From a virus, in the IMG/VR virus record IMGVR_UViG_3300027815_000003, positions 64,001 to 128,000 of that record: 64,000 nt of DNA; one strand, written 5' to 3'. The position numbers and the translations under genes were made by a program. Of this stretch, positions 1,658-59,723 are shown piece by piece; position 1 is the stretch's first letter; each line of letters begins with the position of its first letter. The notes below the pieces were generated by a model. The model saw nothing but the letters and a program-made list of their open reading frames with translations, searched no databases and had not been told where the DNA came from.

Positions 1658-4321
1658 TTATATTATTATCTTCCTTTTTATTTCACCATTTACCATTATT
1701 CTCCCGTCATACCCACAAACGAGACACAATTTATTATCCTTTATATATGCAGGATATCCTAATCCACAATCTGGGCAAAACTCTTCACCAGCACCACTTT
1801 GAACTTGTTTTCTTATCGCTGGAATATTATTTTCTATTACATTAGCAAAATCTTGTACATTACCCATAATCTGTGTACCGACATTCCCAACCAATTCACT
1901 ATATGCCTTACAAGCAAGCAAAGAACTAAAAAAACTATTTCCAGAAAATACAGCCTTACCGTTTCTTCTCACCAATAAAATATGATTTGAAACGGTTGCA
2001 CAATATATTTTACCATTATAATTTTCCCAACAGTCTGTTTTAACTTTGTTAGAATAAGGCATATTTTCTTTTTTCAAAACAGCTATTTCATATTTTAAAT
2101 GTTTTACAAAGCCATGTGGAGCTTTTTTACCAATATTATTTATCATATAAATATTTGATCCATAATTTAATTTTATACATAATTCCTGAAATTGATCAGC
2201 TAATAATTTAGATGTTGTACTATATCTTATATTTGTATAAAGTTGAGTCCCGTCCCCTAACATTAATGCATCAAAAATAATTTTAAGTTTATCTGTAGAT
2301 AATTCTAAACACCATTCTGGTATTTTTTTATTCCAAGAATATCTTCCAATTAAATTATCTAATTCTAAAGATAACCTAGTATTATATATCTCAAAATATG
2401 GGGCATCTTTATTTTTATAATTATGCTTTGTATATTTCCAGGGAAGTTTATTGAAACAATTTTCTATTTTTTCGCTTTTCCATCCATCTTTTTGATCTAT
2501 TCTAAAATATGCATTTTTAATACTTCCGTCTTTCTTTTTATGATAAGATGAATATCCTTCTGAGATAGAATATCCTAAAAATTCTAAAAATAAATCAATA
2601 TCTAATAATTCACCAGCCAATTCAACTTTATTTTTTTCTTTACCCCTCCATAATGCAGATTTTTTATATCTATATTGTTTACCTATTATATTTGACGCTT
2701 TTTTAAAATTAAAAAATGAAAAATCTTTACTGTTCCGTGAAACTAACATATTATGATTTGGTGTAACTAATAAATCAACATGATTGTTTTTTTGATGATA
2801 CATTTGGCCAGAATAATTTTCTGAAATAAGTTTAGATGGTTTTTCATATATCAAATATCCGTCTTTATCTAACGAGGCTAATTCATCTTCATAAATGACT
2901 TCTTTCCAAAATTTCCATCCCTTTTTTGTTAAAACTTCTGTTTGTTCATCGTAACATTCTCCGTGCCCATATTTTTTAGTTCTTGGCGCATCATAATTTC
3001 CATTTACACTTATTATCTGTGTATGTTGCATTATATCAAACATATATTCTATTTTTTTAGTATTTATTATTTTACTATAATTAGCTGCAAGAACACCAAT
3101 ATTTGTCCTTCCAAAAACATGACCGTGCCAACAAGATGTTAAACCTCTATCATCTAATTCTGGTCTTGTAGAATCCCAATAACCTCTTGTTATATTAAAA
3201 TTTTCTGACAATAAATTAAAATATTCAACTTGATCATTTGGTTCCCAATTCCATAAAAGTTTTTGAAAAATTTGTATCATTTTTCCAGTTTTTTCATTTA
3301 CCTTAAATATACTTACATGTGTCGGGTCTATTTTTACTCCTATATCAGCACCAGCAATAATAAACCAATCATCACCAAATTCGTGCTTTTCATATTCATC
3401 TAAATTTTTCAAATCATAATTTTCACATTGTTTAAGTGATTCTTCTGTAATATATGAATTTGCAGTAGAATATGGCATCATCATATATTCTGTAGCAAAT
3501 TCTCTTGGATTATTTTTTTGATAATCAAGTAAATATTTTTCAGTTGTTAATTCTGGACATAAAATCTTTCTATCTGGTGTTGGATTTAATGCGGTTAATA
3601 CTATAGGGACAAATCTATCATCATCTACAGCTTTCATCAACATATCATCTTGTGCCATTGGAGTTCCAGTAAGAATACGGATAATATGATCCCCAGTTGG
3701 AATATTATACGCCTCTCCCCAAAATCTATTCTCTATTTTTTCAAGTTGAGATGTATTAAGTGGGTTTTGGGGATCTTTTAAAATATCATCAAATACACCA
3801 AATCTATTTGTATGAACACCACGTTTAGCAGTAAATATTCCACCAGACATTATTTCACATCGTTTATTCCCAACCATATAACGAAATAAATATTCTGCAT
3901 CTTTCTCTGTATCTTTGAACCACTCTCCTAGTTGTTCATTATCAGATATTTGTCTACGCATTTCCCTTAAATGATATTGAGCAAGAGGTTCTATATATGA
4001 CATAAATATGCCACTTAAATTTTTAGTATCTTTTAATGTTTTTAAAAATATCCAGAGAGGAAATGCCTGGCATAATATACTTGTTTTCCAATGATATCTT
4101 GGAGCCATACAAACTATATCTTTATGATTTTCCCAAGCATATTCTGCTTTTTCTGCGATATATCCACAGTGCCATAATTTATAATATTCTGGTTTATCAA
4201 AACTTTTTGAAAAAATATTTACAAGAAATTCTTCAAAACTCCCAACTTTAATACTTGGCCTATTAACCAATCTATCATTTATTAATTTTGTTGCATCTTC
4301 AACTGTTATTAAATCAGACAT
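1658..4321 (-). CDS. terL: Terminase large subunit with intein; C-terminal Zn-ribbon tail
   Basis: Walker A-like APRYHWKT, Walker B VFDDI, GTP coupling motif, nuclease IAGADIG; about 547 aa after intein removal; CPDC...CLVC at C-terminus. Confidence 0.88.
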   Translation of the reverse strand: MSDLITVEDATKLINDRLVNRPSIKVGSFEEFLVNIFSKSFDKPEYYKLWHCGYIAEKAEYAWENHKDIVCMAPRYHWKTSILCQAFPLWIFLKTLKDTKNLSGIFMSYIEPLAQYHLREMRRQISDNEQLGEWFKDTEKDAEYLFRYMVGNKRCEIMSGGIFTAKRGVHTNRFGVFDDILKDPQNPLNTSQLEKIENRFWGEAYNIPTGDHIIRILTGTPMAQDDMLMKAVDDDRFVPIVLTALNPTPDRKILCPELTTEKYLLDYQKNNPREFATEYMMMPYSTANSYITEESLKQCENYDLKNLDEYEKHEFGDDWFIIAGADIGVKIDPTHVSIFKVNEKTGKMIQIFQKLLWNWEPNDQVEYFNLLSENFNITRGYWDSTRPELDDRGLTSCWHGHVFGRTNIGVLAANYSKIINTKKIEYMFDIMQHTQIISVNGNYDAPRTKKYGHGECYDEQTEVLTKKGWKFWKEVIYEDELASLDKDGYLIYEKPSKLISENYSGQMYHQKNNHVDLLVTPNHNMLVSRNSKDFSFFNFKKASNIIGKQYRYKKSALWRGKEKNKVELAGELLDIDLFLEFLGYSISEGYSSYHKKKDGSIKNAYFRIDQKDGWKSEKIENCFNKLPWKYTKHNYKNKDAPYFEIYNTRLSLELDNLIGRYSWNKKIPEWCLELSTDKLKIIFDALMLGDGTQLYTNIRYSTTSKLLADQFQELCIKLNYGSNIYMINNIGKKAPHGFVKHLKYEIAVLKKENMPYSNKVKTDCWENYNGKIYCATVSNHILLVRRNGKAVFSGNSFFSSLLACKAYSELVGNVGTQIMGNVQDFANVIENNIPAIRKQVQSGAGEEFCPDCGLGYPAYIKDNKLCLVCGYDGRIMVNGEIKRKIII
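1937..2956 (-). mobile_element. 340-aa intein with LAGLIDADG homing endonuclease in TerL nuclease domain
   Basis: GHGE|CYDEQTEVLTKKGWK ... FLGYSISEG ... ALMLGDG ... HILLVRRNGKAVFSGN|SFFS (Cys1, terminal Asn, +1 Ser). Confidence 0.92.
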
Positions 4322-7785: not shown

Positions 7786-8240
7786 TTTATAACTCCAGAT
7801 AAAGCAATTAATGCACTATCATAAAAATCCTGATCTAAAGATTCTGATAAACCAAAAATTTCTATTGCTTTTTTCTTTATATCGTCCTTTTTACAATTAC
7901 CCTTTAGCCCAGGAATTAATCTCTTCCATGTTGTGTTCCCCACTTCTTCTACCAATATCCCTCTATTTTTTAATGTAAGTTTTATCCCAGAAATTATCTG
8001 TATCAAACTTCTTGATGTAAGAAAATTTTGAATATAAATAGGTGCTTCTATTAAAACTTTTGCGTTATCAAAAAATCCATTATTTACATCAACTTCCAAT
8101 TTTTCTATTAAGTCATAAAACTTTTCATTTATATCTTTTTTGTTTGTCTCCCATTTTTTTTGTAAAAGTAATTTCCCATTTTCATCCAAAACTGTACAAT
8201 GTATCCTATTACTAGCCGAATCAATCCCGATTACGTTCAT
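7782..8240 (-). CDS. RuvC-like Holliday junction resolvase
   Basis: VIGIDS, VLIEAP, QDFYDSALIA acidic triad of the RNase H fold. Confidence 0.8.
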   Translation of the reverse strand: MNVIGIDSASNRIHCTVLDENGKLLLQKKWETNKKDINEKFYDLIEKLEVDVNNGFFDNAKVLIEAPIYIQNFLTSRSLIQIISGIKLTLKNRGILVEEVGNTTWKRLIPGLKGNCKKDDIKKKAIEIFGLSESLDQDFYDSALIALSGVIK

Positions 8241-8246
8241 CTTACT

Positions 8247-8525
8247 TCAATAAAATAACCAATTTACCAAGACATCCATTAAGATTGTATCCAAATAAAT
8301 ATATAAATTATCCCTATTTTCAAAAATTTCTTTTTGCGCTATTTTTAATTCTGTTTTTATATTTGAGTTTTCTTTTAGTTCAAATATTATTATTATCTGA
8401 CTCGTGTTTATATCATTTATAATATAAAAATTTAACAAAAACCCTATGTTACGACTTTTTAACCAATTTTGTATAATATAGAATAGAGAATCTTTATCCA
8501 TAGTTTCTGTATTAATATTTATCAT
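8247..8525 (-). CDS. Hypothetical protein
   Basis: ORF track. Confidence 0.55.
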   Translation of the reverse strand: MININTETMDKDSLFYIIQNWLKSRNIGFLLNFYIINDINTSQIIIIFELKENSNIKTELKIAQKEIFENRDNLYIYLDTILMDVLVNWLFY

Positions 8526-8816
8526 TTAATCTTTATTAGCAACTGCTAATAAAATTTCTCCATGTCAGGCTAATGGAACACAAAAACAAATTAAATCTTT
8601 TCCCTTTAATTCTTCTTTTACTGCTTTCAACAATTCTGGATTTCCCATAATATATTCTCTATATCTATCTATAGCTTCTTGTCTGGTTTTAACTTTATAT
8701 TTAGCTAGTGTCCCAGATAAATGAGAATACAAATTACCAAATTTTGTTGGACGCCCCACATAAATAGCCTCTTTAGGGATATCTTTATTAATATTTTTAT
8801 TATAAAGTTTGGGCAT
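8526..8816 (-). CDS. DUF4326-like protein, 96 aa, with in-frame UGA at codon 84 (candidate selenocysteine)
   Basis: IYVGRPTKFGN...LKGKDLICFCVPLA-TGA(8565-8567)-HGEILLAVANKD-TAA(8526-8528); extended frame stops directly before next ATG (8525). Confidence 0.8.
8532..8553 (-). promoter_or_regulatory. Bacterial SECIS-like hairpin
   Basis: TTTATTAGC-AGTT-GCTAATAAA: perfect 9-bp stem beginning 11 nt after UGA; loop G at position 2 followed by U. Confidence 0.7.
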
Positions 8817-8818
8817 TT

Positions 8819-9325
8819 CTATAATCCTAACCATTCCATCATTTGTTCTCTATTTATTAAACTCTTACATTTATAATTTCCACGATTTAATAAACAAATT
8901 TTCCCGCTCACAACAAAACCATTATTTTCTAATATTTTCTGTGCGCTATCCATTGCATTACCAGTTGTGACAACATCATCAATCAGATAAACATTTCTGT
9001 TTTCTAATGAAATATTATAACCAAATGGTAGATATAAATTAAAATCAGGAATATCTGGATAGATTTGTATATGTTTTGTTCCCTTTTTAATAAATCTAGA
9101 CGCACCACTCATTATCACACCTGGAATATAAACATTATTACTCATACCATAAATAAAAATATCTTCGCATATTTCTTTATCTAGCTTATCTATATCAAAT
9201 TTTAATAATGCCTCTTTGCCCGAATGTAATCTAAAATTATCTACAGTAATCATCTGCTTTAATATTTCTCTTAAGTCTATATTTGCACCACCATTATACA
9301 TATTAATAAATCTATTCTCATCCAT
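8819..9325 (-). CDS. Type I phosphoribosyltransferase (orotate PRTase-like)
   Basis: PRPP-binding VYLIDDVVTTGNAM; N-terminal F-x-LHSG. Confidence 0.8.
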   Translation of the reverse strand: MDENRFINMYNGGANIDLREILKQMITVDNFRLHSGKEALLKFDIDKLDKEICEDIFIYGMSNNVYIPGVIMSGASRFIKKGTKHIQIYPDIPDFNLYLPFGYNISLENRNVYLIDDVVTTGNAMDSAQKILENNGFVVSGKICLLNRGNYKCKSLINREQMMEWLGL

Positions 9326-40058: not shown

Positions 40059-40893
40059 TATTCAAAACTCCAATTTTTATTAAATCTTTTTCAAATAAAA
40101 CTTTTATATTATATCCATTTTCAATAGCAAAATTTATTTTATTTTGTGCCAATGGATACATATAACCTTTAACTTCATGCCATTCATTTATTTCTGGTAA
40201 GTAGAAATCTGGGAAATACCACCCAAATGATGTTTTGATAGGATTCTTTTCATATATCCAGTTAATATTATTTTTATCTAAAAATAGTGCATATTTTACT
40301 TCCCAATTTGAACGCATAGAAATAATAATATCGTTGTTTTCATATTTAAACTTTTTATGCCCAGAATTTTGTTGGCGTTTTTTTATTGATTCTTCTGTTT
40401 GTTTTTTTCCAGTATTTATCTTTTTTAATAACTCTTTTGTTTTTTGTGAAACAGGATGACCCTTTAAACAAATAGACGTTAAGTTATTTTTCATGTAAAT
40501 AGATTGATTTTCAGAAAGTTTTTTTAATCTTTTATCAAATTCTTTAGTCAGCCCCTTATTCCAGGAAATTGTTTTACCCGTTTTATGATTATATATATTA
40601 GCGCATAATGTAGAGCAAAAAATACTTTTGTCTTTTTCACATTCTCTTTCTTTTAGTTCTTTGTTATTTCCACAATTTAAACAAATTAATGTTCTATAAT
40701 AATATGGGCCTTTTTTATTATGACCAGATATATAATTATTCCTACATATTTCACCACACCCACATTTACAATAATTTTTTGGCAATAGTTCTAATAATTT
40801 ATACTTATTATCTTTATGAATATTATCAAAATGCTGTAAAATATTTTTAAATATTCTTTTACAAGATGGACATTCATTTACCCATTCACTCAT
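40048..40893 (-). CDS. Free-standing endonuclease (C2H2-like + CGCG + NUMOD3-like + PD-(D/E)XK), no RHH partner
   Basis: MRSNWE...YFPDFYLPEINEWHEVKG. Confidence 0.75.
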   Translation of the reverse strand: MSEWVNECPSCKRIFKNILQHFDNIHKDNKYKLLELLPKNYCKCGCGEICRNNYISGHNKKGPYYYRTLICLNCGNNKELKERECEKDKSIFCSTLCANIYNHKTGKTISWNKGLTKEFDKRLKKLSENQSIYMKNNLTSICLKGHPVSQKTKELLKKINTGKKQTEESIKKRQQNSGHKKFKYENNDIIISMRSNWEVKYALFLDKNNINWIYEKNPIKTSFGWYFPDFYLPEINEWHEVKGYMYPLAQNKINFAIENGYNIKVLFEKDLIKIGVLNNDK

Positions 40894-58355: not shown

Positions 58356-59723
58356 TTATGACAAATCTATAATTTTTGCTTGTCTGTTGGGGGAATAGCA
58401 GCGTAATTCTCCCATAGTATAAAATAAACCACGTACCACTAAAGCATTAGCTGCAAAGTAGTCTCTATTTTCGTAGAATTGTGTGGGTTGTGCTATTGCA
58501 ACTTCTAGATAATCAGTATCAAGAACATAAACATTAGAACCTAATACTGTATCATCACTAGCAACGCTATGTGCAACATCTGTATCGGGAAGAACTGGGA
58601 TACCCTGATAAGTGGCAACCACTAATCCAGTAGCAGTACCTTCAAATGTTTTCTCACTACCGACACCAACTTGTATGAATTTTTCTCCGAAATATCTCTG
58701 TTGTGTGTTAAGTAATCTTTCTAATCTGTAGTATTGATCATGTCCCAAAAGGATTAGTTTTGGTTCCCCACCATTGATACGTATATTTTGTATAGCTGTA
58801 TCAATTAAGTTTAAGGATAAATCACGTCCGACACCAGCATTAGCTTGTACGGAAGCAGCAGCATTCCAATCACCAGCAGCAGCCCGTCCACCAAAAGTAT
58901 AATCATAAGCGCGGATACCACCATTACCAGCAAAGTTTGCATTTGCACTTCCACCACCATATCTTACTCCATCAAATGTTACGATATCATCTATGGAAGT
59001 AAAACCAGCACGACTATAAATAGCTGCAATATCTGTATTGGCGAAAGTTGTTGAACTTGCTACAGTTACTATACCTGTAGATGTATCTACACCAGAAACC
59101 GCTGATCCTGTGGTTCTTATCCAATCTGTTGCAGAATCATCCCATTGTGACACAGTATCACCAATTTTAAAATGATGTGCTATGGAAGCTGGAACTGTAA
59201 AGGTGGTAGCTGCACCATTAGAACATAAATAAGCACCACCAGCAAGTAATTCTTCATTTACTTCTTTAATATGGTCTAATTGTGAGTTCTCCATTTCCAT
59301 TGCAAGAACATCACCAGCACCACCTTCTAATCCAGCAGTGAACATAGATTTCACGCTTACGCCAAAGCTAGTTCCGACTATTCTTGGCAAACTAGAAACT
59401 GTTTGTATATTACTTACATCAATAGTAGGTAATGCTCCAGTTTCAGCTATTGGGCGAGAACGGTTAGAACCTCTATCGGTTCTTACACGCCAACCAACTG
59501 TATTTCCCCAGGTTGAACGTTGTAGAGCATTAAAGAAACGGACTTGGTTATTTAATGCTTGCCAAATTTTTCTTCCAAAAGTGGAAGTGAAAATATTTGT
59601 GCTAGTGTCAACCGTAAAATAGCTCTGTTTCATTAAATATTCAGGGCCTAATACGCTATTAGCATTAGCTCCTCTACGGGCTTGTTGAATAAATTCAACT
59701 AAACTTGGATTTGTTGCAGACAT
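58356..59723 (-). CDS. Major capsid protein (HK97-like fold)
   Basis: After scaffold, before decoration genes; LSLNLIDTAI, GEPKLILLG, YQGIPV, VYVLDTDYL. Confidence 0.85.
   Translation of the reverse strand: MSATNPSLVEFIQQARRGANANSVLGPEYLMKQSYFTVDTSTNIFTSTFGRKIWQALNNQVRFFNALQRSTWGNTVGWRVRTDRGSNRSRPIAETGALPTIDVSNIQTVSSLPRIVGTSFGVSVKSMFTAGLEGGAGDVLAMEMENSQLDHIKEVNEELLAGGAYLCSNGAATTFTVPASIAHHFKIGDTVSQWDDSATDWIRTTGSAVSGVDTSTGIVTVASSTTFANTDIAAIYSRAGFTSIDDIVTFDGVRYGGGSANANFAGNGGIRAYDYTFGGRAAAGDWNAAASVQANAGVGRDLSLNLIDTAIQNIRINGGEPKLILLGHDQYYRLERLLNTQQRYFGEKFIQVGVGSEKTFEGTATGLVVATYQGIPVLPDTDVAHSVASDDTVLGSNVYVLDTDYLEVAIAQPTQFYENRDYFAANALVVRGLFYTMGELRCYSPNRQAKIIDLS

Follow-up and report, generated by a model that had tools for sequence, protein, structure and literature searches.

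Can a bacteriophage gene carry a UGA codon that is read as selenocysteine (Sec)? The question is raised by a short gene on the minus strand of the window, i.e., the whole stretch of 64,000 nucleotides analysed here, which is part of a 190,284-bp phage record from groundwater. The gene encodes a member of the DUF4326 family (PF14216) with UGA in place of the codon for a near-invariant cysteine, and the original prediction, made from the letters alone, took this UGA for a Sec codon served by a SECIS-like hairpin immediately downstream. Our analysis makes it probable that this is an intact DUF4326 gene in which the third cysteine of the family motif has been converted to Sec84, decoded by SelB and tRNA-Sec of the host, with both the incorporation of selenium and the host being inferred. 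What we observe for the phage gene is a UGA at a near-invariant Cys, a conserved frame beyond it, the geometry of a bacterial SECIS element and the recurrence of this arrangement in other lineages. The positions originally given for the TGA, the TAA, the next ATG, the spacer, the stem and the loop all hold on re-reading of the sequence, and the locus is composed of the following elements:

8526..8816, minus strand: DUF4326 (PF14216) coding sequence with the UGA read through, 96 aa (PF14216 profile match, homolog alignment, AF2 model)
8580..8588, minus strand: codons of C77-F78-C79, including motif cysteines 1 and 2, invariant in the alignment
8565..8567, minus strand: proposed Sec codon, an in-frame UGA (codon 84) aligned with the third Cys of CxCxPxxCH
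8554..8564, minus strand: spacer of 11 nt between the UGA and the stem, encoding His85-Gly-Glu and part of Ile
8532..8553, minus strand: SECIS-like hairpin, with a 9-bp stem (8553-8545 / 8540-8532) and the loop AGUU (8544-8541)
8526..8528, minus strand: TAA stop of the read-through frame, adjoining the ATG of the next gene (8525)

The frame that opens at the ATG at 8816 (starting instead at the in-frame ATG at 8834 would lengthen the product by 6 residues) runs through C77-F-C79-V-P-L-A into the TGA at 8567-8565 and continues for 12 sense codons, specifying residues typical of the family, up to the TAA at 8528-8526. The read-through protein matches the PF14216 profile with 63.2 bits (cut-off 25) over profile positions 5-81 of 82, and the G-R, G-N, R and LxCxCxPxxCH signatures of the family are conserved in it. 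The placement of the UGA on the third motif cysteine, as originally proposed, is borne out by the alignments: the column is Cys in 33/33 full-length homologs from the first search, in 164 of the 166 DUF4326 homologs from a wider search and in most of 150 further homologs. Among these 166 and 150 homologs, the best matches of two wide searches, no form ends at the UGA site; a protein search for shorter DUF4326 forms, with a length window that was too small, found none either. In the AF2 model (built with Cys for Sec; pLDDT 95), C77 is predicted to end the last strand and residues 84-85 to begin the last helix, so that termination at the UGA would remove the conserved His together with that helix. 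When checked for decay against a profile built without it, the read-through protein ranked 8th of 34. The Pro that follows G-N, conserved in the family, is replaced by Leu in the phage gene, a change seen in 2 of 289 homologs. We found no close relatives of the gene, the best match being 62% identical and all matches having Cys, and conservation of this particular UGA is therefore not established; DUF4326 is absent from all 14 IMG/VR records related through the capsid protein (64-71% identity, mostly fragments).

The hairpin consists of nine perfect Watson-Crick pairs and one U.G pair, closed by a loop that starts 20 nt past the UGA and has GU at loop positions 2 and 3; it is both the MFE and the centroid fold (-8.3 to -8.9 kcal/mol, z -3.1, 3/200 shuffles). 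A bSECIS predictor had been suggested as a check. We coded the published bSECIS constraints (loop of 3-9 nt, stem of 4-16 bp, G in the first two loop positions, spacing of 16-37 nt, MFE <= -7.5) in a script of our own, not using the bSECISearch program, and the phage hairpin satisfies them, with a loop of 4, a stem of 9-10, a spacing of 20 and -8.9 kcal/mol. We also applied a strict rule, namely, at least 5 Watson-Crick pairs, GU in the first loop positions and the loop at +17 to +24, which is passed by about 1.5% of arbitrary codons in the genome; among the 33 TGA-ended ORFs of the genome, a strict hairpin in this interval is found only in the DUF4326 gene. Random Cys-type tails of the family (349 tails, phage codon usage) yield the strict feature in 1.3% of cases and 9 or more Watson-Crick pairs in 0.02%. 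Synonymous shuffling of the gene's own peptide gives P = 0.30 for any strict hairpin and P = 0.05-0.08 for one of such length, as the peptide L-L-A-V-A-N written in AT-rich codons favours a palindrome. Given these values, the hairpin of this single gene, taken alone, is suggestive, not decisive. A role as a terminator was rejected because there is no terminator-like site there. No other convincing Sec genes were found in the phage genome.

More weight comes from other DUF4326 genes, among which the original prediction had called for a search for Cys/TGA pairs at this column. A degenerate motif scan for TGA at the third cysteine (Cys3) returned 51 metagenome and 32 GTDB matches, of which 77 were due to chance and six are true DUF4326 (L099, which is the same as L220, and L108, L086, L083, L100 and L138); IMG/VR scans for TGA at Cys3 added no true DUF4326, despite at least 514 Cys forms there. 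With two forms that have TGA at the first motif cysteine (Cys1) and one at the second (Cys2), nine further DUF4326 forms are known with TGA at a motif Cys. Of the six other Cys3-TGA forms, three have the strict hairpin, against none of the 74-76 Cys forms (Fisher 2e-4 when the phage gene is left out). The stems of these three differ in sequence and comprise 7 bp with a GUA loop (L220), 5 bp with GUU and 5 bp with GGUU, the loops lying at +19 to +21; GU-loop hairpins of different sequence at the same distance thus support the Sec reading. The three forms were recovered in 15, 5 and 4 contigs, so that read errors cannot account for them. Because the window of the strict rule was tuned after the TGA cases had been seen, the published bSECIS constraints were applied as well: with a G[GU] loop, they are met by 3/7 Cys3-TGA forms versus 3/76 Cys forms (p 0.04 without the phage gene), and with any G in the loop, by 5/7 versus 7/76 (p 0.002). 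At position +7, in the last helix, 82% of the Cys forms have E, K or R, whereas the four hairpin forms have A, S, P and G, which is what a constraint of RNA structure on the codons would produce. The support is uneven: 4/10 TGA forms, the phage gene included, lack a strict hairpin, the hairpin is not the MFE fold in L108 and L086, and in the shuffle test no homolog's hairpin is individually significant. L138, which has TGA in two variants, comes from a genome of the Blastocatellia in which selA and tRNA-Sec are present, but it lacks a canonical loop; L100, too, is ambiguous.

The most direct comparison is provided by L220, on a 62-kb groundwater phage contig, and its syntenic sibling L216, which belongs to the same cluster at 90% protein identity. 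L220 has TGA and the 7-bp GUA-loop hairpin in 15 contigs, whereas L216 has TGC in 19 contigs and no hairpin, with the loop G missing and z of +0.75, a contrast that favours the Sec reading. In L216, DUF4326 is fused to RuvC: L216:3001-3855 is a single DUF4326-RuvC fusion, and in L220:3001-4539 a NUMOD3/DUF559 endonuclease gene lies between DUF4326 and RuvC. Whether a SECIS element arises or decays together with its codon can be tested directly on this sibling pair. Control scans for TGA at Cys1 and Cys2 covered viral contigs (IMG/VR) only. TGA at Cys1 is found in two IMG/VR phages, L255 (593-895; 96 kb, several contigs, with variants in which gene callers rendered the TGA as Trp) and L258 (3320-3583; 56 kb), and in each a hairpin with a GU loop follows at a distance of about 17-20 nt; the strict feature is present in 2/2 of these forms versus 4/76 Cys forms. 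The loops of these hairpins contain the Cys3 codon, which weakens the Cys1 evidence. TGA at Cys2 is represented by L254 (3700-4001, minus strand; 9 contigs), where the frame is intact but there is only a weak hairpin with the loop UGG, and the strict feature is absent; whether this TGA specifies Sec or is a fixed nonsense allele is unresolved. The Cys1 and Cys2 forms can be taken either as Sec at a second cysteine or as a background of fixed nonsense alleles.

The phage itself has terminase, capsid, DnaE and RecA genes and 14 perfect sigma-70 promoters, and from DnaE, RecA and the promoters the host appears to be of bacterial type. TGA is the stop of 33/241 ORFs, which implies the standard code. 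By the criteria of a UCA anticodon, an 8/5 fold and at least 47 bits with RF01852, the phage has no tRNA-Sec, the best RF01852 match scoring 46.1 bits. This match is a 94-nt tRNA with a CCA anticodon (G000:C1:15690-15783, minus strand, outside the window; L166, L267), for which tRNA-Sec is the best match in Rfam; it has a long variable arm, an 11-nt D-loop, a 7/5 fold and a U11-A24 pair. Its acceptor end, A1-U72 and G73, is of the Trp type, these being identity elements of tRNA-Trp. The molecule is unusual for a tRNA-Trp and might read UGA weakly. Another tRNA, of 93 nt with a UAU anticodon (G000:C1:1867-1959, minus strand), has an unpaired, very long variable region according to ARAGORN.

The main rival to the Sec reading is that an accessory gene has suffered a nonsense mutation (TGY to TGA), which would leave a young pseudogene without the last helix and make the palindrome a by-product of L-L-A-V-A-N. 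A single base change would be enough, and a background of nonsense TGAs does exist, as follows from L083, evidently ordinary noise, in which the TGA is confined to one contig, the sequence downstream is identical in a Cys twin and a strict hairpin is missing, and from TGA forms without the strict hairpin such as the Cys2 case of L254. The substitution of Leu for Pro after G-N, the lack of a close relative confirming the UGA and the ease with which the gene's own peptide yields the feature are all in line with such a mutation. We nonetheless consider it unlikely, given that a Cys-type tail seldom produces a hairpin, least of all one of this length, that independent TGA forms show an enrichment of hairpins, which the Cys sibling lacks, and that the protein has no further signs of decay.

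It is very unlikely, in our assessment, that a suppressor-like tRNA, such as the phage tRNA-Trp(CCA) or a tRNA-Cys(UCA) of the host, inserts Trp or Cys at the UGA. The long-armed phage tRNA, with its U11-A24 pair and its similarity to tRNA-Sec, makes this conceivable, as does the tRNA-Cys(UCA) known in some deltaproteobacteria (PMC5389517). However, the 7/5 fold, A1-U72 and G73 of the phage molecule speak against such a role, Trp at a near-invariant Cys would likely inactivate the protein, and TGA terminates 33 genes of this very phage; moreover, a tRNA of this phage leaves the hairpins of unrelated phages unexplained, and SelB-type insertion of Cys would still require a SECIS. An error of sequencing or assembly, or a genome-wide reassignment of TGA, is scarcely credible. 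The records of the exact gene may all come from one sample, and no other sequencing run reaches the UGA codon; yet a Logan contig produced by an independent assembler, with a depth of 18, is identical over 8200-9200 (although its origin may be the source sample itself), and more than one assembly has yielded a record of the truncated product. An assembly error, named at the outset as one observation that would refute the Sec codon, is therefore unlikely. Reassignment (code 4 or 25) is contradicted by the normal use of TGA as a stop and by a coding density that barely changes when TGA is opened (0.90 to 0.92).

If the UGA is indeed a Sec codon, then, in a Sec-using bacterial host, the complex of SelB-GTP and Sec-tRNA(Sec) would bind the GU loop, which lies 20 nt past the UGA, and deliver Sec84, whereupon the ribosome would complete the C-terminal helix and halt at the TAA beside the next start codon, yielding a selenoprotein of 96 aa. 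As the phage encodes no tRNA-Sec, the insertion would depend on the host. The fdhF gene of E. coli also has U-H-G at this point, with a stem that begins 11 nt after the UGA. More generally, the phage gene resembles the bacterial genes with a SECIS inside the ORF, of which fdhF is the prototype (for the bSECIS consensus, see PMC13188914, Fig. 2A), in combining a UGA with a downstream SECIS-type hairpin. It differs from the bacterial selenoprotein genes in that it is encoded by a phage and PF14216 is missing from their 2026 catalogue; furthermore, TGA forms of DUF4326 are sporadic, do not form a clade and would have Sec at either of two motif cysteines.

What the Sec residue might do is less certain. 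Compared with DUF4326 (PF14216; PHROG 464), a family represented in 551 cultured-phage records, the phage protein is a full-length match with all the invariant residues and a stand-alone domain, and differs in having the UGA and the hairpin for Cys. The family has been predicted to consist of enzymes of the rhodanese-phosphatase type that act on ADP-ribose phosphates in viral NAD+/ADP-ribose systems (PMC9503650, PMC7824862). A fold search with the model yielded weak matches to the RapZ C-terminal domain (Z 4.8, rmsd 3.2, 80 residues aligned), NADAR (3.6) and many dual-specificity Cys phosphatases (Z 2.5-3.2), Foldseek returned no match, and no solved structure related by sequence was found; the predicted fold is thus compatible with the rhodanese-phosphatase clade (PMC9503650) but is no proof of it. 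By a still weaker inference, C77...U84-H85, located between the final strand and the final helix, may constitute the active loop of a rhodanese/phosphatase-like fold, and Sec at this place would point to a reactive nucleophilic or redox thiol. The enzyme could act on the phosphates of ADP-ribose products in an NAD+-based conflict with the host, as the published prediction would have it, or, alternatively, in the processing of DNA ends; both roles are only weakly inferred. The gene lies in a run of replication and recombination genes, with a phosphoribosyltransferase-like gene on one side and RuvC two genes downstream, and genes suggestive of an NAD salvage / ADP-ribose context are located elsewhere in the genome:

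G000:C1:138317-142152 and 40299-40697, minus strand: genes for PncB-like, PncA-like and cytidylyltransferase-like (NadM-type) proteins and a SLOG protein (YAcAr)

Next to RuvC, the stop TGA of a 92-aa ORF (window 8247-8240, minus strand) is in frame with the RuvC ORF, two codons before the RuvC ATG; no SECIS-like hairpin is found at this TGA.

The TGA forms are very rare among the 19,009 clusters (at 50%) of the family, and a quick tree (96 columns, a short alignment with weak support) shows the seven Cys3-TGA forms dispersed, its well-supported branches requiring at least 4 changes. This rarity and scatter suggest repeated conversion of Cys to Sec, although they also count against the Sec reading. 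The conversion seems to have had several origins, since only a few substitutions are needed to create a SECIS where U-H-G precedes a short helix. Sporadic conversions of this kind have been described in bacterial families, with rare Sec members amid widespread Cys homologs, as in DUF4326 (PMC1794560). The bacterial cases, however, are mostly thiol oxidoreductases with CxxU or UxxC motifs encoded in cellular genomes, unlike the CxCxPxxUH of DUF4326 in phages. The broader proposal, for which we see about even odds, is that Cys3 or Cys1 of DUF4326, as a counter-defence enzyme, has been turned into Sec repeatedly and independently in phages that infect Sec-using bacteria, with a SECIS emerging de novo in the last helix each time (at least 6 lineages), so that these genes represent a recurrent viral use of the host Sec machinery and mark the reactive cysteines in a family whose chemistry is unknown.

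The mechanism of decoding is already known; what would be new, if the Sec reading is true, is a selenoprotein that is encoded by a phage and belongs to DUF4326. A 2026 review of prokaryotic selenoproteins includes neither DUF4326/PF14216 nor phages or viruses, and the literature that we found naming the family describes no selenoprotein form of it, in agreement with the original prediction. We found no paper describing a phage-encoded selenoprotein, an absence that is uncertain given that most subscription journals were outside the search; one paper merely infers phage selenoproteins, from tRNA calls (PMC10747093). If confirmed, the finding would add a new selenoprotein family, imply that phages borrow SelB and tRNA-Sec from their hosts, predict Sec-using hosts for these uncultured phages and flag the reactive cysteines in a very large family whose activity is merely predicted. 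The DUF4326 genes with TGA are all truncated by gene callers.

Several other features of this phage were observed along the way. The large terminase subunit (window 1658-4321, minus strand) has an apparent intein-like insertion at about residues 454-800, judging from the sequence and the split PHROG matches. The nearest cultured matches of the major capsid protein (window 58356-59723, minus strand) are to haloarchaeal viruses, with 32% identity over one third of the protein, despite the bacterial-type replication genes and promoters, and its IMG/VR relatives are 64-71% identical. Finally, an exact direct repeat of 127 bp (G000:C1:1-127 and 179171-179297) is possibly an assembly k-mer overlap that marks circularity, with extra sequence after it.
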